This document shows, piece after piece, positions 21,429-47,071 of a stretch of DNA of 64,000 nt. The stretch is from Candidatus Scatovivens sp. Its GTDB lineage: Bacteria; Bacillota; Clostridia; TANB77; CAG-508. The position numbers and the translations under genes are program-made. The stretch lies in assembly GCA_045646345.1 (NCBI GenBank), contig JAZRKN010000009.1, positions 1 through 64,000 of the forward strand, written 5' to 3'. The notes beneath the pieces were generated by a model that was not told the origin of the DNA, ran no database searches, and worked only from the letters and a program-made list of their open reading frames with translations. Within the stretch, counting starts at the first letter, position 1, and every line of letters starts with the position of its first letter.

Positions 21429-21610
21429 AAATAAGTAAAAATGTATAAGGATTAGTTCGCTCGAATTGTCGTATTTGAGCGAACTTTTTTGTTACAAAAA
21501 AGTAAAAAAGTAACAAAAAAGATATATATCATATTTGTTATAATTATTTACAAAAAAATGGCACTATGATAGCATAATTGGTGAATAGTGCTATAAAAAG
21601 GAGAAAAAAG

Positions 21611-22207: not shown

Positions 22208-22278
22208 AGTTAATAATGACTATAATGTCTTTATTATAAATTTACATTAAAAGATAAAAGAAAGGGGGAAATAAACAT

Positions 22279-22881: not shown

Positions 22882-22993
22882 TAAAAAACAAGATAGATAA
22901 AAGCTCTATGACGTAATGAAAATAGGGCTTTTATTTAAATATATTGACAAAAGGTTTTAACTTTTTGTGAGTATATTTAAGGAAAGAGTAAAT

Positions 22994-23710
22994 ATGGAAG
23001 AAAAAAATAATAAGAAACCAGAGAAAAAAATTAATATTGAAGAATTAGAAAAAGAAGTAGATGTTGATGAAGAGTTAGATGACGATGAAGAATACTATGA
23101 TATTGACGATTATGAAAGAAAAATTAGAAAAGATAGAAGAGATAAAATTGTTTTAATTATAATAATTATAATTTTATTACTTTTACATTTGTTATGTCAT
23201 AAATTAGGAAAAATAGGTTACAAAAAAGAAGTATCAACAAATGCTGGAGATTTAACAGATGTTGTAAGATTTGATGTAATAGAAATTTTAGATGGAGATG
23301 TAAAAAAGATAAAGGATACGCAATTAAATATATTCAATAATAAAGATTTTAATGGAGAAAAAATAATTGCTCCAAGATCAAGTGGTGAATATAGATTTTG
23401 TGTTGAAAACTTAGTAAAAGGAGATTTGACATATAGTATAGAATTTTTAGATGAAATGACAAATCCTATAAATATGAAATATAGGTTGAAAATTGATAAT
23501 ATCTATATAAGAGGAAACCAAAAAGAATATGTAGATATAGAAGAATTAAAAGTAGATGATATAGTTGTTTTGGAAAATTCTAACAATATATATACACTAG
23601 AGTGGAAATGGGAAGATGATGATAAAGCTGATACATTTGTAGGATCACGAAAAGAAACACAATCATATACTTTAAAACTAAAGATAAATGCAGATAATTC
23701 TCAAAAATAA
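22994..23710 (+). CDS. Membrane-anchored TasA-like domain protein
   Basis: Acidic N-tail, TM, then IIAPRSSGEY.F, LEWKW, DKADT..G, similar to the preceding gene. Confidence 0.65.
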   Translation: MEEKNNKKPEKKINIEELEKEVDVDEELDDDEEYYDIDDYERKIRKDRRDKIVLIIIIIILLLLHLLCHKLGKIGYKKEVSTNAGDLTDVVRFDVIEILDGDVKKIKDTQLNIFNNKDFNGEKIIAPRSSGEYRFCVENLVKGDLTYSIEFLDEMTNPINMKYRLKIDNIYIRGNQKEYVDIEELKVDDIVVLENSNNIYTLEWKWEDDDKADTFVGSRKETQSYTLKLKINADNSQK

Positions 23711-23731
23711 AGTTTATTTGAAAGGGTACAA

Positions 23732-24358
23732 ATGAAATTAACAGAAGCAGCTGTTTGGAATAGGAAAAAGAACTCTAATAAAATAAAAAAAAGACTAAAT
23801 ATAATGTTTTACGTTATATTAATTCCTTTGCTTGCTTATAATATGGCTTTGATTGTACAAGCTGTAGTAAGGCCAAATGAAACACCAGCTTTTTTAGGAT
23901 ATAAGATGTATGTCATAATATCTGGAAGTATGCAACCAGAATTAGAAGTGGGAGATATTGTTGTTGTAAAGAAAATTAATCCAAATGATTTAAAAAAAGA
24001 TGATGTGATTTCTTTTAGAAAAGGTCAAACAATAATAACTCATAGAATTGTAGAAGTAAAAAACGCAGAGGAAAAACTACAGTTTTTAACCAAAGGAGAC
24101 AATAACAACACTAATGATAAAGACTTAGTTTCTGACAAAGAAATCGAAGGAATTGTAGTAAATAAAATACAAAAAATAGGAAAAATTGTATTGAAATTGA
24201 GAGATAAAACATTAATTATTGTGATAATTCTTATATATTATATATTCTTAATGTATGATCAATCAGTTCAAAAAAGAAAGAACTTAAGAAGAATAAAAAG
24301 AGAAGAATACGAAGAGAAAAAGAGAAAGGAAAACTTGGATGAAGGAGCGAAAGATTAA
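23732..24358 (+). CDS. sipW: Second SipW/S26B signal peptidase I
   Basis: IISGSMQP, ITHRIV, TKGDNN. Confidence 0.9.
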   Translation: MKLTEAAVWNRKKNSNKIKKRLNIMFYVILIPLLAYNMALIVQAVVRPNETPAFLGYKMYVIISGSMQPELEVGDIVVVKKINPNDLKKDDVISFRKGQTIITHRIVEVKNAEEKLQFLTKGDNNNTNDKDLVSDKEIEGIVVNKIQKIGKIVLKLRDKTLIIVIILIYYIFLMYDQSVQKRKNLRRIKREEYEEKKRKENLDEGAKD

Positions 24359-24854
24359 ATTACATAATTTAATTTTTATATATGTTATAACAACTATAAT
24401 TGTAACAGTATTTTCGTTTTCGAAATATGTTACAACAGTTTCTGCTGAGAATAAAGCTACACTTGCAGCTATGGCAACTAATATGTCTGTAAATATAGCG
24501 TTAACTCAAGAAGCATATCCAGGTTTTTCAATGGTTTTTCCAGTAGAGATATCAAATAAAGAAAACGATAAGATTTGTGAAGTTTCACAAGAATATGTTT
24601 TAAGAATAGATAGAGCTGACATGGAAAACTTGCCACTTGAATTTTCATTATATAATGATGAATTTTGCACAAGTGAAATTGAAGAAATACAAAAAGATAC
24701 TTTTTTATCTGAAAGTTTTAAATTTACTGCAGGTGTTGAAGATACACAAACATATTATTTAAAAGTTTATTGGCCAGAGAATGAAAAAAATGAATTATTA
24801 GCATTTGAAATTGGCTATTTTTCAGTAGAAATAATTGCGACACAAGTAGATTAA
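24339..24854 (+). CDS. Putative SipW substrate (minor subunit)
   Basis: Signal ending SFS|KY; YPG; LKVYWPE; ends TQVD like TQKD in the 22279 gene. Confidence 0.65.
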   Translation: MKERKIKLHNLIFIYVITTIIVTVFSFSKYVTTVSAENKATLAAMATNMSVNIALTQEAYPGFSMVFPVEISNKENDKICEVSQEYVLRIDRADMENLPLEFSLYNDEFCTSEIEEIQKDTFLSESFKFTAGVEDTQTYYLKVYWPENEKNELLAFEIGYFSVEIIATQVD

Positions 24855-24873
24855 AATTTGGAAAGGACGTAAA

Positions 24874-25641
24874 ATGAAAACTAAAAAAATTAAATCTAGA
24901 TTTAATTTTAATAAGTTACTTTTATTAATTATTCCAATTATATTTTTAACAGGTTCTGTTGCTAAATATATTAAAGAAAAAAATGCAGAACTTGTATATG
25001 AGGCTAAAAGTTTCTATTTTGAAAGTGATTTGCTTTCTAATAATACTAAGGCATTAGCTTATACATATGATGTTGGAAATGATGAAATAACAATTAATTT
25101 AAATAATAATATTGATGACTTAAGATATTCAGATGTTGATATTAAATATACTGTATCTATAAAAGATGCTCAAGGTAATCAAGTAAAAGATAAAAACGGA
25201 GATATATTAGAAGATATAACAGGTAAATTATCAAATAACAGTATAGATTCAAAAAAAATAACATTTGAAAATTTACCAGCGGGAAAATATATTGTTGTAG
25301 CAAAGGCAACAGAACCGTATGAGAAAACCTTGCAAGCATCATTTGTATTAAAATCAAGAAATGATGCGGTGGAGTACAATGTAAGTGATTCAGCTAATAG
25401 TCCAGTATTACAACTAACAGTAAAAACGACAGATTATAAAGGTGATGTAAAAATAACATGGCCAGCTAACATTGTGCCAGATAATACAGATTCTAAATTT
25501 GCAAATGTAAATTCTGGTTATAGTGGTGGAAATATAATAATTCCTTTTGAAGCTAATTCAGAATATACATTTCAATTTTTTAAAAAACAACCTAGTATGA
25601 GTTATGGTAAAACAAGCTTTGTGGTAGAAAGGAGCGAATAA
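24874..25641 (+). CDS. Putative SipW substrate
   Basis: Signal ending GSVA|KY; FYFESDLL; beta-rich. Confidence 0.65.
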   Translation: MKTKKIKSRFNFNKLLLLIIPIIFLTGSVAKYIKEKNAELVYEAKSFYFESDLLSNNTKALAYTYDVGNDEITINLNNNIDDLRYSDVDIKYTVSIKDAQGNQVKDKNGDILEDITGKLSNNSIDSKKITFENLPAGKYIVVAKATEPYEKTLQASFVLKSRNDAVEYNVSDSANSPVLQLTVKTTDYKGDVKITWPANIVPDNTDSKFANVNSGYSGGNIIIPFEANSEYTFQFFKKQPSMSYGKTSFVVERSE

Positions 25642-25643
25642 TA

Positions 25644-28600
25644 ATGAGAAATAATTCAAAAAATAATATAAAATTATTACTTATACTTATTATTGTTTTA
25701 GCTTTCATACCATATAAGCTTATTTTTTCGAAAGCGGAAGAAACTAATAATGAAGTAGAAAAAAATACAATTATTGAATCTAATATAGAAACGACAAATT
25801 TGAATTTAGGTCAAGAAGAGAATATTGTATCAAATGAAGTACAAATTTCAAATGATAGAGAAACAGAAAATATTGTAAGTGAAAAATCAAATACAGAAAC
25901 AAATACAACTGTAGAAAATGTGGTTACAGAAAAAAACAACGAAAATCAGGTTGTCGAAAATGAAGTAAATGAGAATACTATAAATCAAAATACTATAAAT
26001 CAAAATACAGTAGAGAATATTGTTTCAAAAGATGAATATGAAAATAAAGTTGCAACAAATGAAATATCAAATACAGTTGCTACATCAAATGAGAACGTTG
26101 CTATCGGAAATTTTGTTGTTAGTCAAGAAATGCAAGAATTATTAGGTGCTATGGCAGAACCAGTTGATGAACCGGAAGTACAAGAGATTTCTGAAATTGG
26201 GTTAAAAGCAACTCTTTGGGATTCTGAACAATATAGTGCAGGAACTGGAACAGAATTAACAGAAGTTGGAGCAACAGTTAATAATTGGCAATTTGAAACA
26301 AATAAATATTTACAAATTGATCCAAAAGTAGTTGCTGATGGTAATACATACATTATAACGGTTGAACTACCACAAGAATTTTATATAATAGGATCAGAAT
26401 TATCTGTACCAACAGGATATCAAAATGTTAACTTTACAAAAAATGCAGAAATTGTGATAAATGATTCCCAAAAGTATGAATTAAAACCATATAGTGGAAC
26501 AGCTGAATATACATTAAATAATATGGTTGAAAGTGGAACTATACAAATTGGTATAGGATATGATGTTGTTTTGTGGGATAAACAAGAAAATTCTTCATTA
26601 ACTCCGGATGGGGTTAATCCAATAACAGTTAAACTTTCAAAAAAAGAATCTGATGGAACACTAACAGAATTAAATAGAGTACTAATTTCAAAAGCTTTTT
26701 CGGGAAGTAAAAATCAAGATGCGGTTAATGTAAATGGAATGTTAGAAGGGGAATCTTCAGGATTATCAACTATTGTTGCAAATAAAGATGATAGAATTAA
26801 ATTTGTAAAATCTATTAATAATAATGATGGTATGGTTAGATATAAATATTATAAATCAGCAAAAATTACTGTAAAATTACCAAGCTATACTGATACTAAT
26901 GGAAAAATACATTATTTATCTTTTGATGAATCAACTTTAGATTTATCAAAAGTTGCACATACTTCCAAAAATGTGGATTTATCGCAAGCTGATGCTGGTA
27001 TAGTTACAATTGATTTAGTAAATCCTTACTGGAATTCTGGAACGTTAGTTGGATTTGTTGTAGGCCCGCTTCCAGAAGAATTATTAGAACAAAATATAAA
27101 TTCTTTTATATTTAAAAATGGAACTATAACAACTGTTGTTAATGGAAAAAATGGAAATAATAATATAACATATCGTACTTGTTCAATTCCATCAGTAGAA
27201 TATCAAAAAGAAAGTTTAGAAAATGTAGTAATATCTTCACAAAATAAAGGTGTTACTATAGTTGAAAGACCAAATGACGCAGTGTCAATTTTGGGAGGAA
27301 TATATTTAGAAAACAAAGGTACTGGTGTAAGTTGTCCAAAAAATATTGATTTGAAATTCGACATTAATAATACAAATTTAATAAAAGTTACAACAATAAA
27401 TATATTTGCTGACACGATACAAGAATATATAGATGTTACATATACATTGGTTGATGAAAATGGAAATAGAGTATTTTTGGATAATAATGGAAATAGAGTT
27501 TCAGAAGGTTCTAATGAGGCGATTGGAGAATGGGTATATTCACTAAAAAATACATATAAAAATTCAACAAAGAAAGAAAATTTAAAAAATACAATAACAA
27601 GAGGAAAATTACCTGAAGCACATAGACAATATTATTTTAAATCTGTAAATTATAATTTAGAATCAATAAATGAACAAACTAGATTATATGCACCATCTTC
27701 AGTTTTAACTCTTACAGCTGCTGGTAATTTTTTAGGATATGTTGATGATTCAAGTGGAAATAATGAAAAAACAGCAGCTTCAAAAATGGTTGTTACATCA
27801 TTAGATGCAGGTATTACTAATCTAGAAAGAACTGTAACTACAACACTTCAAAATACAAGTACGCCAACATATATAATTGATAATGCAACTATAAATAAAA
27901 CAAAAATACAAGCTGGAGAATCATTTAATATTTCTGGAAAAGTAGTTACTCCTTCTTATCCATATGGAAATAGTACATGGTTAAAAAGAATAACTTTAGC
28001 TGTTAAACTTCCAAAAGATATTACAATAAATGAACAAGCAATTGTATTGAAAAATGCGAAAGGACTATTAATAAGTGGTTCTACTGTTACAACTCAAGAT
28101 ATAGGTAATGGAAATATTTTATGGAAAATAAAATTACCAGAAGATATATGTATAGGAAGAGCTTCTGAAGATATAGGTACGTTACCTTCTGGAGATACAA
28201 TATCATTTGATTTACAATTAGATACTTCATATACAATGAATGCAGTAACAATATTTGTTAAAGATTTAGTAACTGTAGGTGCTTATAAACAATTGAATAA
28301 TGCAAGCGGATCATATTCGTGGGCTTCTAAAGCGGATATATATGATATAAACGAAAATGGATCTACAACAGATAATATAGGTGGTATAAAATCAAGTAAC
28401 GCTAGTGCATGTCAAATTATTTCTCAAACAGCTACGTTGGAAATTCAAGATTCTATAAGTGTTGAATCAAATGGAATTGTTTCAGAGGAATCAAATGTCG
28501 GTAAGATTTTTTCAGTAGAAGATACTATCAATTATAATTTAGATATAGGATGTTTTAGTGGTGGTAGAGCAGAAGGGTTTGTTTATTACATACCAATTCC

Positions 28601-30749
28601 TAAAAAAACAACAATTACAGATAATTTCTTAATTGAAAATAGTAAGAATGGTAAATTCGAACTTGAATTAACAGAAGAACCGATATATACAGGAACTAAC
28701 ATATTTGATTTAAGTTATGTTATGCAAGATGGAATTACATATGCTTCAGCTCCAAGTGTAACTAATTGGTACACAGCAGAACAAATAAATAATGATGATT
28801 CTTTAAATTTTGAAGATGTTACAATGATAAAATTAACAGTTAAAGATGCTGCTATAAAAAATGGTGATAAAGTAAGAATTACATTAAAATTGAAATATGT
28901 AGGTGAAAGTTTTAGAGAAGAAGCTGGTAAAGAAAATATCTGGCATAGTGGTGGATATTATAGATTTATAAACAGTGACAGAGAAAGTGCAGGAAATTTT
29001 GCAACAGAAGGTGTTTCTATAAAATTAAATTGTGAAGATATTGAACTTGATGAAATAACATTAACTGCAGCAAGAGGTATGGTTCCAACTGGTGTGGGAA
29101 ATGTTAATGTAGTAAATATATCAGAAACAGAATTCCCAATTTTTGAAAATGCTCACACATTTGAAATAACAGATGTAGAAACTTACAATGTAATTTTAAA
29201 ATCAAAAGATTATATGCTTGCTAATCCAGATATGCCGGGTATAGATGCAAATCAAAATTTTGCTATAACGGTAAATATGGGAACAAAAGAAGTAAATATA
29301 TTAGAAAGTGCAAAAGAAAATCCTATTGAAATAGGAACTATTTCAGCAAATTCGTCACCAAGCTTCACTTACCAAATATATAATGCAGATGCTTTAAATG
29401 ATAATTCGCAAATAAGATATATAATTGTAACGTTACAAAGTGAAAATGGAATAACATTAAAACAAAAAATTAATATAAATAGAGAGGTTGTTCAAGCTTC
29501 AGATCCACAAATTGCTATAGTAGCAGGAAAAAGATATGTGACATTTGATGATTTAACGACAGATACAGTAATAAGTCAAGATTCATCATTTACAGCACAA
29601 TTTATATTAGAATATATACCAAATACATATAAAGATGAGAGAATTACTTTTTCAAATGCTTTACCTGTCGGAACAAAAATAATATTAGAAAATTTTACTG
29701 ATGAGGCAAATCCAACATATTGGTATTATTCAGTGAATTCTGCTATTTCTACAATTAAATTAGAAGATTTTGTTGCAATGGGAAGAACTGGAAGTGATAA
29801 TTACAATATGCCAAACGATTTGGATATTATAAAAGAAAAACTTTTAGTATTAGTTGATTTCTCTCAATGTTCAAATTGTCTTTCATCAGAAACATATTCA
29901 ATAAAATTACAATTAACAGGAACAACTACAGATGTTGAAGATTTTGATTCAAATGAATTGAAATTTTCGCTAAGAAATAAAAATACTTTTGTGTTAAATG
30001 AAATTTCAAATGCAAAAATGGGAGAAAAATTTAATATAAATTATACAATGAACTTGACCCAAGGTGCAGACACTAAATATGGAGGAAGAAAAGCTTCTTT
30101 GGTAATAACTGCTCCGGATAATATTCCATCAGATACTATGCTAACAATTCAAAATAATGTGTATAATTTGAATGCTGAAAAGCAATTTATAGTATCGCTT
30201 GGAGATATAAAAACACAAACAAGTTCATTAGAAATGAATATCTTTTCTAATATGCAACCAGATGTGGAAACGATATATGAATTTGATATAGCATTATGGA
30301 TTTCAGCAACTGCTAATGCTGATGCTCCAAAATTAGGAGAATTAATTTCTGCTAAAAAAATAAATATAACAACTAATAATGAGTTGAATCCTGCTCTTAA
30401 AGTAACAAATATAAGTTCAAGAATTATTAAAAAAGATGAACTAAATCAATTATATACACTTGATTATAAGTACAAGCCGGATGCTAATTGCAAAGTAACT
30501 GTAGAATTACAACAAAAAATTGGTAGTGCTTATAAGAAAGTAACTGATAAATTAAATCAAGTAAATGGATCAACGGCTCATACAATGGGAACATTTGATA
30601 TAAATCCTGATTCAGGAAATAATATATTAGAATTTAGATTGTCATCAATAACAGAAAAAGCAACATATAGAATTGTGTTTAAAGTTTGTGACGATGCAGG
30701 AACAACAATATTAGAAGTTCCATATAATTTTATAGTGTTAGACAAATAA
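25644..30749 (+). CDS. Large secreted beta-rich protein (putative adhesin), 1701 aa
   Basis: N-terminal signal/anchor, E/N/T-rich linker, Ig-like beta-rich composition, no LPxTG seen. Confidence 0.75.
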   Translation: MRNNSKNNIKLLLILIIVLAFIPYKLIFSKAEETNNEVEKNTIIESNIETTNLNLGQEENIVSNEVQISNDRETENIVSEKSNTETNTTVENVVTEKNNENQVVENEVNENTINQNTINQNTVENIVSKDEYENKVATNEISNTVATSNENVAIGNFVVSQEMQELLGAMAEPVDEPEVQEISEIGLKATLWDSEQYSAGTGTELTEVGATVNNWQFETNKYLQIDPKVVADGNTYIITVELPQEFYIIGSELSVPTGYQNVNFTKNAEIVINDSQKYELKPYSGTAEYTLNNMVESGTIQIGIGYDVVLWDKQENSSLTPDGVNPITVKLSKKESDGTLTELNRVLISKAFSGSKNQDAVNVNGMLEGESSGLSTIVANKDDRIKFVKSINNNDGMVRYKYYKSAKITVKLPSYTDTNGKIHYLSFDESTLDLSKVAHTSKNVDLSQADAGIVTIDLVNPYWNSGTLVGFVVGPLPEELLEQNINSFIFKNGTITTVVNGKNGNNNITYRTCSIPSVEYQKESLENVVISSQNKGVTIVERPNDAVSILGGIYLENKGTGVSCPKNIDLKFDINNTNLIKVTTINIFADTIQEYIDVTYTLVDENGNRVFLDNNGNRVSEGSNEAIGEWVYSLKNTYKNSTKKENLKNTITRGKLPEAHRQYYFKSVNYNLESINEQTRLYAPSSVLTLTAAGNFLGYVDDSSGNNEKTAASKMVVTSLDAGITNLERTVTTTLQNTSTPTYIIDNATINKTKIQAGESFNISGKVVTPSYPYGNSTWLKRITLAVKLPKDITINEQAIVLKNAKGLLISGSTVTTQDIGNGNILWKIKLPEDICIGRASEDIGTLPSGDTISFDLQLDTSYTMNAVTIFVKDLVTVGAYKQLNNASGSYSWASKADIYDINENGSTTDNIGGIKSSNASACQIISQTATLEIQDSISVESNGIVSEESNVGKIFSVEDTINYNLDIGCFSGGRAEGFVYYIPIPKKTTITDNFLIENSKNGKFELELTEEPIYTGTNIFDLSYVMQDGITYASAPSVTNWYTAEQINNDDSLNFEDVTMIKLTVKDAAIKNGDKVRITLKLKYVGESFREEAGKENIWHSGGYYRFINSDRESAGNFATEGVSIKLNCEDIELDEITLTAARGMVPTGVGNVNVVNISETEFPIFENAHTFEITDVETYNVILKSKDYMLANPDMPGIDANQNFAITVNMGTKEVNILESAKENPIEIGTISANSSPSFTYQIYNADALNDNSQIRYIIVTLQSENGITLKQKININREVVQASDPQIAIVAGKRYVTFDDLTTDTVISQDSSFTAQFILEYIPNTYKDERITFSNALPVGTKIILENFTDEANPTYWYYSVNSAISTIKLEDFVAMGRTGSDNYNMPNDLDIIKEKLLVLVDFSQCSNCLSSETYSIKLQLTGTTTDVEDFDSNELKFSLRNKNTFVLNEISNAKMGEKFNINYTMNLTQGADTKYGGRKASLVITAPDNIPSDTMLTIQNNVYNLNAEKQFIVSLGDIKTQTSSLEMNIFSNMQPDVETIYEFDIALWISATANADAPKLGELISAKKINITTNNELNPALKVTNISSRIIKKDELNQLYTLDYKYKPDANCKVTVELQQKIGSAYKKVTDKLNQVNGSTAHTMGTFDINPDSGNNILEFRLSSITEKATYRIVFKVCDDAGTTILEVPYNFIVLDK

Positions 30750-30789: not shown

Positions 30790-31719
30790 TTAAATTTTAT
30801 TATTTGTTCTTCTTTTTGGAAGTGGCTTTGAAGAGATTACTGTTGGCGAAACTTCAAAAACAATATTAAAACAATCAAATTTATACATTTCATTATTATC
30901 TAAATAATCTAAGTAAATATCAAGTTCATCAATATTTCTACAAGCCGCTATAATTGCTGGATGTAGGTTGTAATTGAAAAATAATTCAACTCCTAATTCT
31001 AGTCCGTCTTTTGTTGATAGATTTTCTTTGTTCTTTATCAATTTAAAGGCTTCTTTAAATCTAGATATTGAAGCATTTTTGAAGAACGATAATGGAATTG
31101 TATAATGTGTTTGAATAATTTCTTCATATGATGAAAATTTATTTTTATTAGCAGAAAAGATTTGCTCTAATTCATGATATGTATATGGTAAAAAAACAGT
31201 TTGTTTTGTTTCTGAAATTACTAGAGTGTTTTCTCTTTTTAAGTCTTCTGGTAAATTATTTTTTAATTCTTCGAAATTGACAATAGGATCAGCTTCAGTT
31301 AATTCTAATTTTATATTTATGTTTTGGTCTGAAAATTGATTTAATGCTTTTTCAATTTGTAGAGTATTTAATTGAACAGTACTATAAGCTTCCGAAAAAG
31401 TAGAATTAAAGTTGTTAATTTTTTCTTCAGTTAGTGAATTCATGTTATTCTCTTTTATTGCATTTGTTAGAATTGTAAGCAATAGGTTTAATTTATTTAA
31501 AATTGCAATATTAGAATTAGAAACTTCAAGAGTTTCTTTTAGAAAATTTACTATTTCTGGGGTTGAATTATTTTTTTGAAATTTATCAAGATATTTTGAA
31601 ATAGTTTCTTTTTTTATGTTTTGTACATCTAACATTGATGATAAAATCTTTTTTTCATAATCCAAAAGCATATTAAATTTTTCATGATTTTTAATTAATT
31701 CTTCTGTAAAAAATATCAT
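30790..31719 (-). CDS. Hypothetical protein, 309 aa
   Basis: GAGGTG RBS, long ORF. Confidence 0.75.
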   Translation of the reverse strand: MIFFTEELIKNHEKFNMLLDYEKKILSSMLDVQNIKKETISKYLDKFQKNNSTPEIVNFLKETLEVSNSNIAILNKLNLLLTILTNAIKENNMNSLTEEKINNFNSTFSEAYSTVQLNTLQIEKALNQFSDQNINIKLELTEADPIVNFEELKNNLPEDLKRENTLVISETKQTVFLPYTYHELEQIFSANKNKFSSYEEIIQTHYTIPLSFFKNASISRFKEAFKLIKNKENLSTKDGLELGVELFFNYNLHPAIIAACRNIDELDIYLDYLDNNEMYKFDCFNIVFEVSPTVISSKPLPKRRTNNKI

Positions 31720-31932
31720 ATATTTACACCTCGAATATATTATATATTAAAAAATTTTAAAAATCAGTATTTTAATATAAATTTAATATAAGAGATATTT
31801 TGATAAATAAAAGGAGTTTAACTTTCGTGAAAAAATAATTTAAAAAAGTATAAATGATACATAAAAGTTATTGTAAAAAAAATATATTATTTGTAAAATA
31901 TTGTTATAAACAAAAGATAATGGGAGGTTTCT

Positions 31933-34900
31933 ATGACTAGAAAAAAAGTAGGAAAATTTTTATTATATATAATAATTGCTATGCTTATTATTTCTTCATG
32001 TTACTGTTTTTGGTCTTATTTTTCCAAAGGTAAACAAAAAATAACAGTAAAAACAAGTAACAATTGTTATAGTGGTGAAAGTATTAATGCTACTATTGCT
32101 GTAATGAATGTTAAAACTAATAAAGCGATAGATGCAAAAATCACAGCAACATTATATGATAGTGATGACAAGAAAGTAAAAGATGTTGTTACTAAAATGG
32201 AAATTGAAAAAGGAGAAGCTGGAGAATTAGCTTTAAATGTACCGGAAGACTTAAAAAGTGGAAAGTATACTTTAAAGATAAAATCTAATTCGGGATTTTA
32301 TTCCGATACAGCAGAAATTCCAATTAATGTTAAAAATGATAAAAAGTCAAATGTGATAATTTCTTTTGATAAAGGGATTTATAAACCTGGAGATGAAATT
32401 AATTATAGAATTTTAATGCTTTCTAAAAGAGATGAAACTCCTTTGAGTCAGAATATTAAAGTTTCAATATATGATGGAAATGATAATAGAGTTTATATAG
32501 AAGAAGCTGTGACTTCTGAATATGGTATTATTTCAGGAAAGTTTAAATTAGCAGATGAGGTTAATAGTGGTACTTATAAATTAAAAGTTGAATCTGATAG
32601 ACAGGAAGTTACAAAAACTTTTAATGTAAATCCATATATAATTCCAACCTTTGAAGTTGAAGTTTCATCAGATAAAGATAATTATATTGTTGGAGATGTG
32701 GCTAAAATAAAGGTAGATGCTAAATACTTTTTTGGAGAGCCTGTAAAAAAAGCTGAAATAAAAGGAACTGTTGACGGAAAAGAAGTTGTTGGATTGACAG
32801 ATGAAAACGGAAGTTTTACATACGAATATAAATTTGGAAAAGCTTCTAAAATAGTTGCAGATTTTACTGTGGTAGATTCATCTAATTATTTGATAGAGGC
32901 GTCAAAAATATTATGTTGTGGAACAGCATTATATGAAGTTGAAGTTATTCCAGAATATTCAGATATAGCTTATGGATTTGATAATGATATATATGTAATT
33001 ACTAAAAAAATAGATGGAACTCCAGTTAAAACTTATTCAACATTAAAAATAGGAAAAATTTCAAAACAAGTAATTTCTGATGAAAATGGAATCGGAAAAG
33101 TTACAATAACATCTAGCGAAACAGAAGAATTACCAAAAAAAGAAATGCTATCTGTTAAAGTTGAATCTGAAGATATGGAGTCAAACAAAGTAACAAAAAC
33201 ACATCAATTATTAATTCATGATGCATTTCCTAATTTAATAAAAACGAACAAAACAAAATACAATGCTGGAGAAGATATTGAAATAAAATTAAATTCAAAA
33301 GTGAATACAAATACCAAAAATATATATGTCTTCAAAAGTAATGAACTTATTAAAACTATTGTTACAGATGATGATAATGTGAAAATTAATTTAGGCGATG
33401 TCTCAGGGTTAGTTGATTTATATATTCCAAATCAAAAAAATATGTCAACAATATATAATTATTATGATGATTTTTATGAAACTTATAAAGTTAATATAGA
33501 TTATTCTAAAAAGACAATTTTTATAAAACCAGAGAAAGAACTAAATATTTTAGTAGAACCGGTAAAAGATGAATATAAACCAGGAGATACTTTAGATGTT
33601 AAGTTCACTACAACTAATGAACAAAATGAGTTGGTAAATTCTGCTTTATTAGTGAGTATTTTAGATGAAGCGATACTTGCGTTAGCTGATAATGATTTGT
33701 CTATTGATAATATAAAATTAGCGTTAGAAGATATTGTTTTAGAACCAGGTATGACTGCTGCAGATTTATATGTAATGGCACTAGACGAATCTTCAGATCT
33801 TGCTTTTAATTCTGTATTATTAAAACAAAAAGTAACAAATCCAGATATTTATACTAAAAATTATAGAAATTACGAAACAGAAATATATTTGATGTTTGGA
33901 ATTATAGCTATTATAGTAGCTGCAATTTTAATAGCTTTAAGTTATATTGCTAAGAATAAAGAAAAAGTAGCTAAAGTGATAATTCCGGTAATAGATGTTT
34001 TGGCAATATTTATTTTAATGTATATATATGCTGAGGAAGTATTCGGTTTAATAGATAATTTATTTATGGTATTTGCAACATTTATTCTTTCAATAATTGC
34101 GTATTTGTTGTTCTTGTATAAAGAACGTGACTTTATATTTAAATTAGTATCAGAAATGATTGTAATTCCAATTGTCTCAATAATAGGAATATTCTTGATT
34201 TCTATATTAGTATCTTTGGTATTTGATATATATATACCAAAAATATTTGCTTTAGTTTTAGGTGTAGTCGTTTTATTAATATTATTAGAGTTTGCTATAT
34301 TAAAATCATTACAAAGAAAAAGAGGATTAAATAAAGTTTTAACAAAGATTTTTGAGTTTTCAAAACTAATTTCAAGAGCTGTTGTATTTTGGTTTTTAAC
34401 AATAGTATTAACAGAAATTACAGAATTTGGATTACTAATAGTTCTTGCTCTTTATTATTTATATAGAAAATTTATATTAAAAGAAGCAAAAACTAAAGTA
34501 GAAGATGGGAAAATAGTATTAAATTTAAATGTTTCTGAATTAGTGGGAATGCTAATAGGAATGTTATTAATTATAATTGTTATAGTAATAGTAATTTCTT
34601 CTAATTTAAATGATTATAGAGTAATGAATGATTCTGTAACTTCAGATGTTACGGCTCCTAGTTTACCTATGAAGGATTCGACAACAAATTCAAGTACTGT
34701 AACATTAGATTTTAGTCAAGTTACAGAGGATATGATAATCTCAGGAGCGTCTGATGCTACAGGAGCGGGAAGTAGCATAAATAATTCATTCGGTTCAATG
34801 TTTGATTTTGATTTGAATATTATGCAAGATTCAAAAGCCGAATCATCTGTTGAGATGTCTACAGAAGATTTTGTTTCAGAAGGTGATAATTCAAATGAAA

Positions 34901-36990
34901 TAGAAAATGAAATAGAAGAAAATGTTAGAAATGTATTTTTAGAAAGCTTAGCATTTATTCCAGAATTAGTTACAGAAAATGGTGTAGCAAATTTTAAAAC
35001 AGAGATTAGTGATAATATAACAACTTGGAATATTCAAACAATAGGAAATACAAAAGAAGGAAATGTAGGATTTGGTTCAGGAAGTTTTAAAGTATTTAAA
35101 GAATTTTTTGTAGAATATACTCTTCCGGCAAATTCGGTTGTTACAGATAAAGTAAGTATTCCAGTAACACTACATAATTATACAGAAAAAAATCTAATAA
35201 TTGATTTATTAGTAAAAGAAAATGATTGGGCGATTATTGGTGATTATGAAAAACAAAATGTAGTTGAAGCTAAATCAACAAAAATGATATATGTACCAAT
35301 TGAAATTTTAAAAGATGGAAACAATACATTAAGAATAGAAGCGAATTCAGGAAAAAAATCAGATATAGTTGAAAAAACGTTAGTTGTTAAACCTAATGGT
35401 TTAGAAAAAAATGTAGTAGTTTCAAGCGGAATGATTGAAAATAAATATTCTCAAGATATCATATTTAATGAAAAAGCGATTGAAAAAACTGAAAAAATAA
35501 AAGTAAAATTATATGCATCGCCAGTTGTTCAAGCGATAGAAAATATAGATGCTATGTTAAGAATGCCAACAGGATGTTTTGAACAAACTTCTTCTTCGTT
35601 ATATCCAGATATTTTAGTTTTGAAATATTTAAGAGAACATGATTTAAGTAATAAAGAATTAGAAGAAAAAGCGTTAAATTATATATCTAAGGGATATCAA
35701 AAGTTATTAACTTATGAAGTAAAAACTAAAAAAGGTGGATATTCATTGTATGGATATGCACCAGCAGAACCTGTAATAACAGCCTTTGGGTTAATGGAAT
35801 TTAATGAACTTTCAGAAGTTTATGAAGTTGAAGAAAAAGTTATTGATAATATGGTTGAGTATTTATTTGATGTTCAAAATGTAAATGGAAGTTTTGATTA
35901 TAATACTGTTTATATTGGTGGAACTGCTAGTAGAGATGATTTAGCAATGAATGCATATATTATTTGGGCTTTATCAGAGGTTGTTCCAAATGATAAGAGA
36001 TTAGAAAAATCAATAAGTTATTTAGAAAATAAATTAGATAAAATTAAAGATAACTATACATTAGCATTAATTGCAAATATTTTTGCTAATACTGATAATA
36101 AGAATTCAGCAAATGAAGTTTTAAAAATGATAAATCAAAATATTAAAGTAACAGAAAATGGTGCTTATATTGCTTCAAATATTTCGGATTATTATGGAAC
36201 AAGAGGTAATCATCAAAATAACCAAGCGACAGCACTAACATCAATGGCTTTGACTAAACTAAATTCAAATCAAAAAAATAATGAAGAATTTGTAAAATTC
36301 TTAGTAAGTCAAAAAGATAAATATGGAAGTTGGGGAACAACACAAGCAACAGTACTTGCATTAAAAGCAATTAATAGCTTTACTCAAAATTCTGATATTA
36401 AAGATCAAACAATAACTATAAAATTAAATGATAAAGAAGAAAAAATAGAAATAAAAGAAAATGCTTTAGATGTTTATGAAGTAGAGTTTGATAATGTATC
36501 AAAAGAAAATAGATTATTAATTGATATGAAAAAAGGTAAAATAACATATGAAGTAATTAAAAATTATTATCAAAGTTATGCAGAAATAGATGATGATTTA
36601 CAAAATGAGAATAAATTAAGTGTAGTACAGAACTTAAGTAGTGTAGCAAAAGTAAACGATATAATTACTCAAAACATATCAATAAAAAATAATAAAACAT
36701 ATATTGAAAATGGATTGATAGAAATTAATATACCACAAGGAACTACTCCGGTAGAAGCTTCATTAATGAATTTGAAATATAATGGAATAATTGAAAAATA
36801 TGAATATAATTATAATAAAATTAATCTTTATATAAGGGGATTTGAACCTGGAGAAGAAGTATTATTGGATATTCAATATAGAGCATTATATCCAGAAAAT
36901 ATTACTGGTGGAGCAATAAGATTTTTTGATTATTATAATCCAGAAATTGAAGAAATTTGTTACCCAAAAGTTCTTATAGTAGAAGAATAA
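31933..36990 (+). CDS. Alpha-2-macroglobulin family thioester protein with internal multi-TM block
   Basis: DKGIYKPGDEINYR (MG2), YKPGD, VRNVFLESLAF, DNITTW, PTGCFEQT thioester, WGTTQATVLALKA, FDYYNPE. Confidence 0.92.
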   Translation: MTRKKVGKFLLYIIIAMLIISSCYCFWSYFSKGKQKITVKTSNNCYSGESINATIAVMNVKTNKAIDAKITATLYDSDDKKVKDVVTKMEIEKGEAGELALNVPEDLKSGKYTLKIKSNSGFYSDTAEIPINVKNDKKSNVIISFDKGIYKPGDEINYRILMLSKRDETPLSQNIKVSIYDGNDNRVYIEEAVTSEYGIISGKFKLADEVNSGTYKLKVESDRQEVTKTFNVNPYIIPTFEVEVSSDKDNYIVGDVAKIKVDAKYFFGEPVKKAEIKGTVDGKEVVGLTDENGSFTYEYKFGKASKIVADFTVVDSSNYLIEASKILCCGTALYEVEVIPEYSDIAYGFDNDIYVITKKIDGTPVKTYSTLKIGKISKQVISDENGIGKVTITSSETEELPKKEMLSVKVESEDMESNKVTKTHQLLIHDAFPNLIKTNKTKYNAGEDIEIKLNSKVNTNTKNIYVFKSNELIKTIVTDDDNVKINLGDVSGLVDLYIPNQKNMSTIYNYYDDFYETYKVNIDYSKKTIFIKPEKELNILVEPVKDEYKPGDTLDVKFTTTNEQNELVNSALLVSILDEAILALADNDLSIDNIKLALEDIVLEPGMTAADLYVMALDESSDLAFNSVLLKQKVTNPDIYTKNYRNYETEIYLMFGIIAIIVAAILIALSYIAKNKEKVAKVIIPVIDVLAIFILMYIYAEEVFGLIDNLFMVFATFILSIIAYLLFLYKERDFIFKLVSEMIVIPIVSIIGIFLISILVSLVFDIYIPKIFALVLGVVVLLILLEFAILKSLQRKRGLNKVLTKIFEFSKLISRAVVFWFLTIVLTEITEFGLLIVLALYYLYRKFILKEAKTKVEDGKIVLNLNVSELVGMLIGMLLIIIVIVIVISSNLNDYRVMNDSVTSDVTAPSLPMKDSTTNSSTVTLDFSQVTEDMIISGASDATGAGSSINNSFGSMFDFDLNIMQDSKAESSVEMSTEDFVSEGDNSNEIENEIEENVRNVFLESLAFIPELVTENGVANFKTEISDNITTWNIQTIGNTKEGNVGFGSGSFKVFKEFFVEYTLPANSVVTDKVSIPVTLHNYTEKNLIIDLLVKENDWAIIGDYEKQNVVEAKSTKMIYVPIEILKDGNNTLRIEANSGKKSDIVEKTLVVKPNGLEKNVVVSSGMIENKYSQDIIFNEKAIEKTEKIKVKLYASPVVQAIENIDAMLRMPTGCFEQTSSSLYPDILVLKYLREHDLSNKELEEKALNYISKGYQKLLTYEVKTKKGGYSLYGYAPAEPVITAFGLMEFNELSEVYEVEEKVIDNMVEYLFDVQNVNGSFDYNTVYIGGTASRDDLAMNAYIIWALSEVVPNDKRLEKSISYLENKLDKIKDNYTLALIANIFANTDNKNSANEVLKMINQNIKVTENGAYIASNISDYYGTRGNHQNNQATALTSMALTKLNSNQKNNEEFVKFLVSQKDKYGSWGTTQATVLALKAINSFTQNSDIKDQTITIKLNDKEEKIEIKENALDVYEVEFDNVSKENRLLIDMKKGKITYEVIKNYYQSYAEIDDDLQNENKLSVVQNLSSVAKVNDIITQNISIKNNKTYIENGLIEINIPQGTTPVEASLMNLKYNGIIEKYEYNYNKINLYIRGFEPGEEVLLDIQYRALYPENITGGAIRFFDYYNPEIEEICYPKVLIVEE

Positions 36991-42027: not shown

Positions 42028-42765
42028 ATGATAAGTTTACCAGAAGAAAAAATTTTGTATTCAGAAATACAAAAAAAGTTGTTTTATATAATACCTGAGA
42101 AATGGGAAAGTATATATTTATATGCTTCTGTAATTGATATGCCAAATCAAAAACCTGTTGGAGAAATGTATTTTTACTACTTACCAAAAGGTATAATAAA
42201 AAAGAAATTTGTTAATGGCTATGAGATTCCATCAATTTTTAATATTGATGAAGAACAATATTCTAAATTAATTACAGATGTTTATAATTTAATAAAATTA
42301 TTACGTGAACGTGCTGTAGAAACAAAAAGAAAAGTTTGGAGTAATATAAATATCACAATTGAGAATTTTAAATTTAAAATAGAGTTTGATTACGAAGATT
42401 TAAAAAAATCTGAATTTGATTCTTATGAACGTCATGTAATATGGAGATATAATTATTTAAAAGAGGATTCGGAAGTTTTAAGTAGAAAAGATAGAAAGAT
42501 AATTGATAAATATTTAAAATATACAGAAACAAGAATCCCGTTAAAGAAAGATTCTTATATTGAAGGAATATATAAACAACCTGTTAAAAATATTATAGAT
42601 TTTGAAAAGACTTTAACAGTTGAAGAAGCTATAGCTCAATCTAATGAACCGAAAGAGAAAAAGAAAAAAAGAATTTTTGGTAACAAGAATAAAATAGATG
42701 ATGTTATTGACGAGGATGATGAAAATCAAACATATAATAATCAGATATTAAATTGGAAAAAATAA
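42028..42765 (+). CDS. YezG/DUF600-like immunity protein
   Basis: IPEKWESIYLYA, MYFYY, W..INI, FKIEFDYED, ERHVIWRY pattern. Confidence 0.65.
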   Translation: MISLPEEKILYSEIQKKLFYIIPEKWESIYLYASVIDMPNQKPVGEMYFYYLPKGIIKKKFVNGYEIPSIFNIDEEQYSKLITDVYNLIKLLRERAVETKRKVWSNINITIENFKFKIEFDYEDLKKSEFDSYERHVIWRYNYLKEDSEVLSRKDRKIIDKYLKYTETRIPLKKDSYIEGIYKQPVKNIIDFEKTLTVEEAIAQSNEPKEKKKKRIFGNKNKIDDVIDEDDENQTYNNQILNWKK

Positions 42766-42863: not shown

Positions 42864-43862
42864 ATGGATCGAATTTTAAAATATTTTCCTATAAATATAA
42901 AAGTGATTTTAGAAAAAGAAATTGGAGAGAAAAAGAACAGTTTAGAAGAAATTAGAATAAGAGTACAAAAACCAATTATTTTAAAATTTAATTCTGGTGA
43001 AAAAATTGTAAGATATTTTATAACTCAAGAAGAAATTTTAAATATATTGCAATATGTTTGCGAAAATTCAATATATAGTTATCAAAAACAAATTTCTGAA
43101 GGATTTGTAACTGTTACTGGTGGACATAGAGTGGGAATATCGGGCTCTTGTGTGATGGAAAATGGTAAAGTTATAAATATTAATTATATAAATGGCTTAA
43201 ATTTTAGAATAGCGAGACAAGTTATAGGTGCTAGTGAAAAAATATTAGAAAGTATATTAGACGTTGATAAAAATTCTATTCGAAATACATTAATAGTGTC
43301 TCCTCCAGGATGTGGTAAAACTACTATTTTAAAGGATTTAGTAAAACAAATATCAAGTGGAATAAGGCAAAAAAAGTTTAAAGGAATTGATGTTGGAGTT
43401 GTTGATGAAAGAGGAGAAATTGCAGCACTATATAAAGGAGTTCCTCAAAATGAAATTGGAATAAAAACAGATGTAATGTCTAATGTTACTAAAAGTATTG
43501 GATTAAAAATGTTAATAAGAAGTATGGCACCACAAATTGTTGTTGCAGATGAAATTGGAACGAAAGAAGATGTTGATATTATAAATTATGCGATGTGTTC
43601 AGGATGTAAAGGGATATTTACGGCTCATGGTTCAAATTTTGATGAGTTGTATTTGAATCCTATAATAAAAGAATTAATAAATAATCACATATTCGAACTG
43701 ATTGTTTTTTTAGATGAAAAAATCAAAGGAGAAATAAAAGAATTATATATTCTTGATAAGAAAATGACACAGTATAAAAAAGAAGAAAAAAGAAAAATTA
43801 AAGATAATGTAGGGTTAGATTTTTTATTAGGTGAAAATGATGGAATTGATAAAATGTTTTAA
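42864..43862 (+). CDS. spoIIIAA: Stage III sporulation protein AA
   Basis: LEEIRIR, GGHRVG, SPPGCGKTT, VDERGEIA, RSMAP, DEIG. Confidence 0.95.
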   Translation: MDRILKYFPINIKVILEKEIGEKKNSLEEIRIRVQKPIILKFNSGEKIVRYFITQEEILNILQYVCENSIYSYQKQISEGFVTVTGGHRVGISGSCVMENGKVININYINGLNFRIARQVIGASEKILESILDVDKNSIRNTLIVSPPGCGKTTILKDLVKQISSGIRQKKFKGIDVGVVDERGEIAALYKGVPQNEIGIKTDVMSNVTKSIGLKMLIRSMAPQIVVADEIGTKEDVDIINYAMCSGCKGIFTAHGSNFDELYLNPIIKELINNHIFELIVFLDEKIKGEIKELYILDKKMTQYKKEEKRKIKDNVGLDFLLGENDGIDKMF

Positions 43863-44343
43863 TTTGATAGGAATATTTTGTTTATGTTCTTATATTGGTG
43901 TAATTAAAGCTCAAAAATATGAAATAAGAGTTATAGAATTAAATAGATTTAAAAATGCACTTTATGTGTTTAAATCAAAAATAGAATTTACTTATGAACC
44001 TATCAAAAATATCTTTGAAGAAATATCAAAAATAATATATAAAGAAGAAAAAAATATTTTTAAAGAAGCTATAAAATGTGAAGAAAAAATAAATGAAAAT
44101 TGGGAATTGGCAGCAGAAGAATTAAATGACAAATTAGATAAAGAAGATATATATGCAATTAAAACATTAGGAAAATTATTGGGAAAAACAGATGTAAAAG
44201 GACAAGTTAGTGAGATTTTGTTAGTAGAAAGTTTGATTGAAAAACAAATTAGTAAAGCTGAATGTGAAAAACAAAAAAATTCAAAATTATGTAAAAATAT
44301 GGGGATTATTATAGGATTAGGAATTTGTATAATGTTTGTTTAG
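43831..44343 (+). CDS. spoIIIAB: Stage III sporulation protein AB
   Basis: Operon position; LGKTD..GQ; N- and C-terminal TMs. Confidence 0.88.
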   Translation: MKMMELIKCFNLIGIFCLCSYIGVIKAQKYEIRVIELNRFKNALYVFKSKIEFTYEPIKNIFEEISKIIYKEEKNIFKEAIKCEEKINENWELAAEELNDKLDKEDIYAIKTLGKLLGKTDVKGQVSEILLVESLIEKQISKAECEKQKNSKLCKNMGIIIGLGICIMFV

Positions 44344-44352
44344 GAGTTTTTT

Positions 44353-44547
44353 ATGAATATAGAGTTATTATTTAAGATTGCTGGAATTGGAATATTAGTT
44401 GCTGTTCTTCATCAAGTATTATCGAAAGCTGGAAGAGAAGATCAAGCGATGATGACAACTTTGGCTGGAATCGTTATTGTATTAACTGTTGTTGTTAAAG
44501 AAATTAGTACCTTATTTGAAACAGTAAGGACGGTGTTTAATTTATAA
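44353..44547 (+). CDS. spoIIIAC: Stage III sporulation protein AC
   Basis: FKIAGIGILVAVL..VL..AGREDQA. Confidence 0.95.
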   Translation: MNIELLFKIAGIGILVAVLHQVLSKAGREDQAMMTTLAGIVIVLTVVVKEISTLFETVRTVFNL

Positions 44548-44927
44548 TGGACATCTTAAAAATAATTGGAATTGGTTTTTGTAGTTTGATTATATCTATA
44601 ATTTTAAAAGAATATAAAAAAGAATATGCGGTTTATAGTATGCTAATAGGCGGAGCGATAATAATTTTTTTTTCTTTGGAAACAATAAATATTATTATAA
44701 ATTTTATAAGGCATTTTTCTAAAAATTATAATAACGGATTTATTGAAATTTTATTAAAAATTACAGGAATATCGATACTTGCAGAATATGCAACATCTAT
44801 ATGTAAGGATTCGGGAGAGGTTTCGATAGCTAATAAGATTGATTTTGCATCTAAGATTATTGTTGTTTCAATGTCAATTCCAATAATATCAAGTACATTG
44901 TCTTTATTACTCAAATTATTACCATAG
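44547..44927 (+). CDS. spoIIIAD: Stage III sporulation protein AD
   Basis: LLKITGI...EY...ICKDSGE..IA.KI. Confidence 0.93.
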   Translation: MDILKIIGIGFCSLIISIILKEYKKEYAVYSMLIGGAIIIFFSLETINIIINFIRHFSKNYNNGFIEILLKITGISILAEYATSICKDSGEVSIANKIDFASKIIVVSMSIPIISSTLSLLLKLLP

Positions 44928-44938
44928 GAGTAGTTTTT

Positions 44939-46015
44939 ATGAACGAAATTTTAACCACAGAGATAAATGTATTCGGAATAGATGAATTTTTGTATCAAGC
45001 AGAAAAATATACAAAAGAAGTGTTTCCAAATCTAGAAATAAAAGAATTTTTTAAAGAAAGTTTAACTGGAAATTTAGGAGATTTTTTTTCTACTAGTAAT
45101 ATAAGTAATGTATTAACAAAAGAATTGCAAGAAACTCTAAATATATTAGCGAGTATATTAATAATTATTATTATACATAGCATATTGAAATCTATTGTAG
45201 AAAGTTTAGGAAATTCTTCATCAAGTCAGATTGTATATTTTGTTCAATATATTGCAATTGTAACAGTTATTGTTAATTCATTTGTTAATATTTTGGACAT
45301 TACAAAAGAAGCTATAAATGAAATTATAAATTTTATGAATTTACTTACACCTATTTTTATAACTTTACTTATAACTACAGGAAATTTAGTAACAAGTAAT
45401 ATTGTACAACCAGTATTACTGTTTATAGTTAATTTTATAGGAAATTTTACAAATGTTTTTTTAATACCTCTATTATTAATTTCTATTACTTTATCTATAA
45501 TTTCTAATATTTCTGATAAAGTTCAAGTAAATAAATTATCAAAATTTTTTAAAACTTCAATTGTTTGGATTTTGGGGATAATATTAACTATATTTGTAAG
45601 TGTACTCTCAATAGAAGGTACTTTAAGTAGTAGTGTTGATGGAATAACTAGTAAAACAGCTAAAGCTGCTGTTTCGAATTTTATTCCTGTTGTTGGTAAA
45701 ATAATGGGAGATACAGTTGAAACTGTATTGGGATGTACAAATATATTAAAAAATTCTGTTGGGATAGTTGGAGTAATAATTATTATAGGTATTGTACTAG
45801 TACCGATAATTAAAATATCTGTTTTATGGATTTCATTTAATATTACATCAAGTATTTGTGAAGTTATTGCAGATGAAAAGATTGTTAAATTGTTGGATAA
45901 TATTGCGGATAGTTATAAAATTTTATTTGCAATATTAGTTTCTATTTCAATAATGTTTATTATCGGAATAACTATAGTTATAAAAATTACAAATAGTTCA
46001 TTAATGTATAGGTAA
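44939..46015 (+). CDS. spoIIIAE: Stage III sporulation protein AE
   Basis: Multi-TM; KTAK..VSNFIPVVG, KNSVG. Confidence 0.92.
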   Translation: MNEILTTEINVFGIDEFLYQAEKYTKEVFPNLEIKEFFKESLTGNLGDFFSTSNISNVLTKELQETLNILASILIIIIIHSILKSIVESLGNSSSSQIVYFVQYIAIVTVIVNSFVNILDITKEAINEIINFMNLLTPIFITLLITTGNLVTSNIVQPVLLFIVNFIGNFTNVFLIPLLLISITLSIISNISDKVQVNKLSKFFKTSIVWILGIILTIFVSVLSIEGTLSSSVDGITSKTAKAAVSNFIPVVGKIMGDTVETVLGCTNILKNSVGIVGVIIIIGIVLVPIIKISVLWISFNITSSICEVIADEKIVKLLDNIADSYKILFAILVSISIMFIIGITIVIKITNSSLMYR

Positions 46016-46017
46016 AT

Positions 46018-46482: not shown

Positions 46483-46490
46483 GAGGAGTT

Positions 46491-47069: not shown

Positions 47070-47071
47070 GT

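Follow-up and report, generated by a model that had tools for sequence, protein, structure and literature searches.

The window analyzed here, a 64,000-nucleotide stretch of DNA from Candidatus Scatovivens sp., encodes a 1685-aa thioester macroglobulin (31933..36990, + strand; ORF call and Pfam) with a membrane insert of about eight predicted hydrophobic helices. We regard it as reasonably probable that this protein is a membrane-integrated covalent protease trap, a reading that draws on its anatomy and motifs, on a predicted topology, and, for the trapping itself, on its likeness to A2ML1 and the type I bacterial macroglobulins. A preliminary description of this DNA had proposed such a trap in a monoderm, and the proposal has gained from a conserved insert, from the predicted placement of both halves outside, and from intact thioester and trigger motifs. 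No description of a macroglobulin with an internal membrane bundle was found in the literature, which was covered mostly outside subscription journals, and the concern that the architecture had already been described was not borne out there. In the accessible part of a review from 2026, A2M is assigned to metazoans and Gram-negative bacteria, and the word "transmembrane" does not occur (PMC12939704); types I and II are presented without such a bundle in the accessible portion of the MagD paper (PMC5764988), and "macroglobulin" is absent from the available text of a paper on TANB77 pilins (PMC11680825).

Anatomy and predicted topology of the membrane insert

The ATG of the ORF is preceded by a Shine-Dalgarno-like GGGAGG (31922..31927), on the + strand like every feature of the gene given below. 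A promoter scan returned 6 sites against 4.9 expected by chance, and no terminator was found by scan at the gene. The Pfam matches (MG2 at residues 141-232, A2M_BRD at 436-584, A2M at 1006-1088, TED at 1199-1481) and the alignment to CD109 give the layout of the superfamily: an MG6 domain split by linker and bait, followed by MG7, CUB-TED-CUB, and MG8. PF07677 is precomputed on many homologs, and NCBIfam holds no named family for the protein. A homolog search returned 663 proteins, the best 120 of which (43-99% identity) were aligned with the query; all counts out of 121 below refer to this set of the best 120 and the query. A hydrophobic helix behind a basic N-terminus (aa 9-27; 31957..32013), missing from the preliminary description, is present in 120 of the 121 and is predicted to be either a signal anchor or a signal peptide. 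It is followed by the N-terminal MG domains through the first half of MG6 (aa 34-585, outer limits approximate; 32032..33687), recognized from Pfam MG2, MG3 (below cut-off), and A2M_BRD and from the model, with the YxxP motif of the MG2-MG3 linker at aa 235-238 (32635..32646). Next come a conserved, LNK-equivalent helical linker (aa 586-645; 33688..33867; 57% mean identity, helices in the models) and the bundle of eight hydrophobic segments (aa 651-890; 33883..34602), delimited by hydrophobicity, alignment, model, and flank charges. Directly after the bundle lie about 105 Ser/Glu/Asp/Thr-rich residues, the bait-like region (aa 891-998; 34603..34926), which is predicted to be disordered and, by alignment, model, and strain differences, is the least conserved part; its C-terminal end is the RxxF plug (aa 999-1002; 34927..34938). 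The helices had been placed at the bait region, which they do adjoin, but they sit between the linker and a bait that is itself retained. The remainder comprises the second half of MG6 with MG7 (aa 1003-1160; 34939..35412; Pfam A2M, 67% mean identity), the thioester domain (TED; aa 1199-1481; 35527..36375; PF07678, E 3.1e-39) with its CFEQ motif (aa 1215-1218; 35575..35586), and a C-terminal MG8 or receptor-binding-like domain (36613..36987, limit approximate) that aligns to the C-termini of CD109 and A2ML1. ORF, Pfam order, and motif coordinates agree with the thioester macroglobulin and intact CFEQ first reported, and the MG2, A2M, and TED domains expected on that basis are all found in the ORF.

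The insert is a conserved part of this family. Among the best 120 of the 663 homologs, the core averages 51-67% identity to the query, the bundle, which drifts faster than the core, 29-32%, and the bait 20%. We consider it very nearly negligible as a possibility that a chimeric assembly or a chance hydrophobic stretch explains the insert. Contigs from four runs of four studies, the best outside sources being bovine and unspecified animal gut metagenomes, cover the gene; the junction of linker and first helix is bridged at 33001-34159 in X4 and 33587-33990 in X3, and that from the helices through the bait into the core at 34327-36113 in X4 and 34281-35272 in X3. It may be said for a chimera that no single outside contig from the four runs spans the whole gene. 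Yet because the insert is kept across the homologs and its junctions are bridged by other sequencing runs, it is not chimeric, and the absence from close homologs that had been named as a warning sign is not seen in the 121 aligned proteins.

The eight segments (at about aa 651-673, 682-700, 709-729, 742-763, 771-790, 812-828, 830-844, and 869-890) are hydrophobic in 119, 121, 121, 118, 120, 102, 113, and 120 of the 121, respectively, in keeping with the eight or so helices claimed at aa 651-890. A net positive charge is found on loop 1 in 120 of these proteins, on loop 5 likewise in 120, and on loop 7 in 113; a net negative one is found on loop 2 in 117 and on loop 6 in 105. The short loop 4 is acidic in 47 and basic in 4. 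The alternation of basic and acidic loops first described is upheld by loops 1, 2, 5, 6, and 7, but is weaker at loop 3, which is net basic in 70 of the 121 and net acidic in 4. The basic character shared by loops 1, 5, and 7 predicts an even number of crossings, whether TM6 and TM7 span the membrane or dip into it; even crossings would therefore leave both A2M halves outside, where MG6 could assemble, and the bait is predicted to begin at the membrane surface. This accords with the original placement of both halves outside, and an odd count separating them did not emerge. The predicted cytoplasmic parts amount to about 8 N-terminal residues and loops of at most about 26 residues; the largest such element is the basic loop 7 (aa 845-868; 34465..34536), predicted from alignment and model to form a short beta-hairpin.

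Modeling supports this picture in part. An AlphaFold2 model of aa 586-906 from 63 sequences (pLDDT 82.5) has seven helices, as TM3 and TM4 are merged into one 55-residue helix, and a short beta-hairpin ahead of TM8; a greedy hydrophobic-window counter likewise gives 7 helices for the protein. A second model (aa 431-1160) shows beta-sandwich domains on either side of the insert and a disordered bait, at a pTM of 0.41 that puts the relative placement of the domains, and of the MG6 halves around the bundle, beyond its reach. The AlphaFold check that had been suggested accordingly bears out the domains on both sides and the disorder of the bait, but not the number of helices. Ahead of TM8 lie 12 residues that are neutral rather than basic, among them a conserved Glu. 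When flanks of 12 residues are tested for TM8, 66 of the 121 proteins give the wrong direction; with 25- and 30-residue windows, 116 and 121 give the right one. A first-helix flank test outside the gut family is mixed, with 17-40 right and 15-39 wrong of 67, depending on the setting. The 12-residue flank, the mixed first-helix test, the merged TM3/TM4, and the pTM all count against the trap. The bundle shows no conserved catalytic residues among the aligned homologs; conservation reaches ≥70% at 11 of its positions, which hold hydrophobic residues, Tyr, Pro, or Lys. The insert gave one weak row against Pfam, below cut-off, and no match in an Atlas search; Foldseek with the membrane-domain model gave none at E 0.001, the best fold match having a Z of 7.4 and an rmsd of 5.4 over 106 residues. 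Missing fold matches are no proof of a new fold.

Relation to known macroglobulins

The preliminary description had taken YfhM and MagD as its comparison class, but the best PDB sequence matches are instead CD109 (8s3o, E 4.8e-45) and A2ML1 (7q1y, E 6.1e-44), together with A2M, TEP1 (E 4.2e-39), and C3 (E 5.3e-27), and there are no bacterial proteins in the best 60 of 71. By sequence, the protein appears closer to animal CD109, A2ML1, A2M, and TEP1 than to E. coli A2M. A fold search with aa 431-1160 returned C5, CD109, C3, A2ML1, and A2M, with E. coli ECAM at rank 31 (E 7.6e-10). CD109 and A2ML1, monomeric thioester protease inhibitors, have the same domain order, split MG6, linker, and bait, and the same CxEQ, YxxP, and RxxF motifs, but have no membrane bundle between linker and bait. 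The C-terminus of CD109 carries a GPI anchor. Like the macroglobulin here, CD109 is a cell-surface protein according to the accessible part of PMC12927315.

The trigger and thioester residues are invariant: GCFEQ, Y235, P238, R999, and F1002 occur in 121 of 121 (the best 120 of 663 and the query), and the final Pro of RxxFP is replaced by Leu in 119. In A2ML1, per the available text of PMC9156758, linker and bait form one MG6 insert at the place where complement has its anaphylatoxin, and activation begins as an Arg-to-Pro plug moves out of a channel that the Tyr-to-Pro motif lines. At the level of sequence, the invariant residues match such a plug-in-channel mechanism. The variable, unstructured bait typical of A2M inhibitors is likewise present in alignment, model, and strain differences: besides its low identity, its length ranges from 69 to 126 aa and its pLDDT is under 50. 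Among the strain differences listed (38 entries in the ORF, with 19 further entries besides), its 105 codons show 10 amino-acid-changing versus 3 silent differences, and the other 1580 codons show 9 versus 16.

The protein differs from C3, C4B, and A2ML1 at the His that, in the accessible text of PMC7864068, directs their thioester to hydroxyls. In the 121 aligned proteins no C3/C4B-type catalytic His is conserved about 110 residues past the thioester, a position fixed by one pairwise alignment; the corresponding loop (35905..35922, from the CD109 alignment) has the consensus STYIGG. The position aligned to the CD109 His (aa 1328), again by that single pairwise alignment, is Ile in 110 of the 121, and any His at aa 1321-1336 is found in 8. 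Because there is no catalytic His, the thioester probably prefers amines.

C3 and C4 also carry a discrete module between linker and activation site (the anaphylatoxin in C3), as here, but C3, C4, and TEP1 lack this combination of a membrane bundle, a long bait, and no conserved His, and the CD109/A2ML1 alignment reaches the end of the protein, leaving no C-terminal complement-specific domain. These proteins suggest an alternative that we judge unlikely, namely a complement-like tether, in which a host, self, or predator protease would arm the thioester and this would glue an adjacent surface to the membrane without inhibiting the protease. Equally unlikely on our reckoning are the particular targets that might be envisaged, such as a mucus protein, another cell, or a phage or predator appendage. 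TEP1 and C3 are among the closest solved relatives, the insert lies where C3 has its anaphylatoxin, as given in the available text of PMC9156758, and in 6 of the 18 insert-less, soluble relatives scanned (4 above cut-off) that slot holds a pseudopilin-like T2SSG domain. Against such a tether stand the lack of the conserved His with which C3 and C4B target hydroxyls on surfaces (PMC7864068, accessible part), a long, variable, disordered bait of the kind that marks broad-spectrum inhibitors, and the wall of a monoderm, beneath which a membrane-held protein would presumably lie. Insect TEPs, about as close in sequence, are without demonstrated protease inhibition in the accessible text of PMC9156758, which counts against the trap.

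Type I bacterial A2Ms (ECAM/YfhM and Sa-A2M) resemble the protein in being prokaryotic, in their CxEQ, in N-terminal membrane attachment, and in a presumed role in envelope defense; they differ from it in its monoderm host, polytopic insert, and lack of an adjoining PBP1c gene. The N-terminal lipobox of type I proteins is found, by pattern, in 3 of the 121 (best 120 of 663 and the query). MagD, of type II, is membrane associated, as is the protein here, but in the accessible part of its description it has no CxEQ and no predicted transmembrane domain, is held by MagB, and has its gene in an operon of six (PMC5764988); the present macroglobulin has a thioester and its own helices and no mag operon. 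Archaeal A2M homologs (Makarova et al. 2021) have a TEP-like arrangement with CxEQ, and the available text of that survey names signal peptides and no internal membrane bundle (PMC8416519).

Distribution, gene neighborhood, and a probable four-base reading of CGG

Strong matches to the macroglobulin were found in 11 of the 36 same-genus genomes searched, a patchiness that counts against the trap; there were none in 24 genomes from other families of the order and none in 398 scored genomes from elsewhere in the class (2 more were unscored). Four of 400 genomes of the phylum had matches, at 23-24% identity only, and a plasmid collection yielded one weak match. Those relatives that carry names belong to uncultured Clostridia, among them Candidatus Scatovivens, whose placement we take to be the order TANB77. 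No further TED gene turned up in the same genome. Related families (L033-L038) and 23 of the 398 other genomes of the class (L050-L075) have a second, distant type of macroglobulin, about 1560-1750 aa long, which matches the window's protein only weakly (E 4e-7 or worse).

The immediate neighbors in the window are a divergent 309-aa ORF and a GAPDH-like gene, with no PBP1c gene adjoining. Downstream glycolysis genes are the same as in the window in 9 of the 11 relatives' loci, and an mtaB-like gene lies upstream in 8 of the 11; we take these names, and that of the GAPDH-like gene, from recognition of the sequences. Clustering of neighbors by BLAST revealed no partner gene common to the 11 loci, nor did BLAST clustering, with Pfam on some neighbors, reveal a common regulator-like gene cluster. 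The 309-aa ORF (30790-31719, minus strand) is separated from the macroglobulin gene by a 213-bp intergenic region, matched neither a Pfam nor an NCBIfam family above cut-off, and was not seen beside the relatives' copies. Between the mtaB-like and macroglobulin genes the window has a cassette (21578-30749) that encodes two signal peptidases of SipW-like type, a 1701-aa surface protein, and several small secreted proteins in which an "AKY/SKY" motif comes after the signal helix; its ORFs from 22279 onward have no match in the relatives' loci, and we take it to resemble a TasA/CalY-type fiber operon. After the glycolysis genes come a YezG-like immunity-family gene (42028-42765) and what is presumably a spoIIIA-like operon (42864-47683), which suggests that the host is a spore-former. 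In 3 of the 11 relatives a 280-330-aa unannotated family lies downstream of the macroglobulin gene (L023:5086-6006, L027:5126-5968, L030:4618-5616).

A separate observation concerns the genetic code of this genus, in which CGG plus any following base (CGG+N) is probably read as one glycine. When window ORFs were compared with their orthologs in 21 loci, 11 of 11 frame breaks were +1 with an in-frame CGG; these fall at five sites in two genes, several of them at glycines retained in the window's copy, and all in loci outside the window (L022-L031, L041, L045). The macroglobulin genes of two relatives, G029 and G002, seem split and open to 1706 and 1699 aa, respectively, with one CGG+N glycine step. 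A tRNA-Gly of genome G000 (C1:228598-228671, minus strand; L156) has the loop CTTCCGA with G37, which could pair as UCCG and hence with four bases; no tRNA-Arg(CCG) is among the 33 tRNAs called in that genome. The loop pattern recurs in 33 of 61 genomes of the order, and G002 and G029 have no match to it. In G000, an early stop together with a long +1 frame is seen at 16 of 180 in-frame CGG codons; the rate is 0-1.4% among ten control codons and 3% at AGG. It speaks against this reading that 72 of 90 in-frame CGG codons in ORFs of at least 200 aa lie more than 30 codons from the stop, although many of these ORFs may be antisense. We found no paper on a four-base CGG+N glycine case in the literature. 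If true, this would be a natural four-base reading across many genes, and it may be a larger surprise than the macroglobulin itself.

The linker-bait slot, the proposed mechanism, and its meaning

The macroglobulin belongs to a large prokaryotic clade with differing modules in the trigger slot. A search with the C-terminal half returned 7,350 representatives, 1,824 of them at E up to 1e-30 (animal proteins probably included), and the best 150 together with 80 metagenome loci gave 229 pooled proteins, 191 of which had both anchors and were counted. Of four crude settings, the most permissive finds no helices in the slot in 98 of these 191, two in 6, four in 8, six in 41, eight in 21, ten in 3, and an odd number in 14. 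Non-zero counts are even in 79 of 93 proteins with that most permissive setting and in 64 of 91 with the first (27 odd), and this prevalence of even numbers supports the trap. A DPWG-type motif is found in 54 of 100 insert-less proteins versus 1 of 91 with helices. In a tree of the core (187 proteins, 4 of the 191 without the core window being omitted), midpoint-rooted without an outgroup and giving no order of events, the insert state changes 4 times versus a mean of 62 in 200 shuffles, a low number that reflects kinship. The window's protein falls in a clade of 37 (support 1.0), all with 2 to 10 helices, whose named members, Thermoclostridium sp. and Acetivibrio alkalicellulosi (annotated as TYQ15130.1), have four each. 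Because two-helix versions are present in the same clade, the large bundle would be dispensable for the design. Profile comparisons favor a common origin of the inserts only for the eight-helix gut and four-helix Clostridia groups, which score 76% (6% reversed), and for two environmental groups, which score 96% (0.6% reversed), the other 13 of 15 subgroup pairs scoring ≤37%; by this measure the inserts of most subgroups appear not to be detectably homologous. One 2080-aa relative (P0164) combines a zf-HC2 finger and about eight helices with a YscJ/FliF ring-forming domain inside the bait position. An ARPP-1 gene (PF20208) lies downstream of insert-less relatives in four loci (L094, L105, L109, L111), two of which have SLH- or LysM-containing surface proteins upstream.

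An N-terminal anti-sigma-type zf-HC2 finger occurs in 5 of the 29 distant relatives scanned, all five with a membrane insert, and an ECF sigma gene comes next after 2 of the 16 insert-bearing metagenome loci scanned. Both observations favor a reading that we hold to be rather doubtful, that of a protease-activated receptor, in which a cut in the bait would undo the link from TM8 to MG6, letting the bundle rearrange and the loop 7 hairpin signal to an unlinked partner. TM8 is indeed joined directly to the bait, and loop 7 is partly conserved and a hairpin in the model. However, the window's protein has about 8 cytoplasmic residues ahead of a first helix that starts at aa 9, with no zf-HC2 finger by Pfam and no cytoplasmic output domain; its bundle drifts fast, and inserts of the gut family show no profile similarity to those of finger-bearing proteins above reversed controls. 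Both ECF genes precede an apparent anti-sigma gene of their own (judged by eye), and the 11 relatives' loci share no partner gene, 9 of them continuing into the same glycolysis genes. The preliminary suggestion of a receptor coupling bait cleavage to a membrane domain fares poorly in view of the short cytoplasmic parts, the lack of a partner gene, and the lack of conserved catalytic residues; on sequence features, such a receptor would fit some distant relatives better. A related and similarly doubtful view treats the slot of this clade as a place where effectors can be exchanged, equivalent to that of the anaphylatoxin in C3; the gut eight-helix version would then be a protease-activated receptor, capturing the protease while also signaling its attack across the membrane.

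In 8 of 87 insert-bearing proteins the last helix ends in a lipobox-like pattern; these include three two-helix members and one four-helix member of the window protein's clade and none of the eight-helix gut family. They provide the case for a two-chain maturation, in which TM8 is an internal signal peptide cut by signal peptidase, much as furin cuts C3, and the bundle is a processing device. We find this decidedly improbable, since the window's protein has no lipobox, any Cys at aa 885-900 occurs in 4 of the 121 (best 120 of 663 and the query), and a cut there might fire the trap early. TM8 was also considered as a prepilin-peptidase substrate and rejected, as the family examples listed have no Gly before the conserved Glu motif. 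Among the 87 proteins, 6 have a pilin-like last helix, and no eight-helix gut member is among the 6.

Under the favored reading of a covalent trap, the protein would be fixed on the outer face of the cytoplasmic membrane by its bundle of about eight helices. A protease that has passed the wall would cut the bait, upon which the RxxF plug would retract from the channel formed by MG2, MG3, and the linker; this retraction would expose the thioester, which would acylate an amine on the protease. Because the N-terminal half would remain embedded in the membrane and the thioester half bound to it through the split MG6, the protease would stay tethered to the membrane. Rather than an enzyme or a channel, the bundle would be an anchor that also pins the N-terminal end of the bait. 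Conservation of the bundle, loop charges, and GCFEQ across 43-99% identity (best 120 of 663 and the query) supports such a trap. Eight more helices look excessive for anchoring alone, because an N-terminal anchor already exists.

As far as the partly accessible sources go, the bacterial macroglobulins described to date are periplasmic, Gram-negative, and structurally distinct from those of animals. Here, a monoderm commensal of the gut has an animal-like thioester protein threaded through its membrane. The protein's membrane tether offers a test of how much the trigger shared by A2M and complement tolerates, and the four-helix relative from Acetivibrio alkalicellulosi may be easier to work with. 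For uncultured gut Clostridia, the trap is a possible means of surviving host or microbial proteases.
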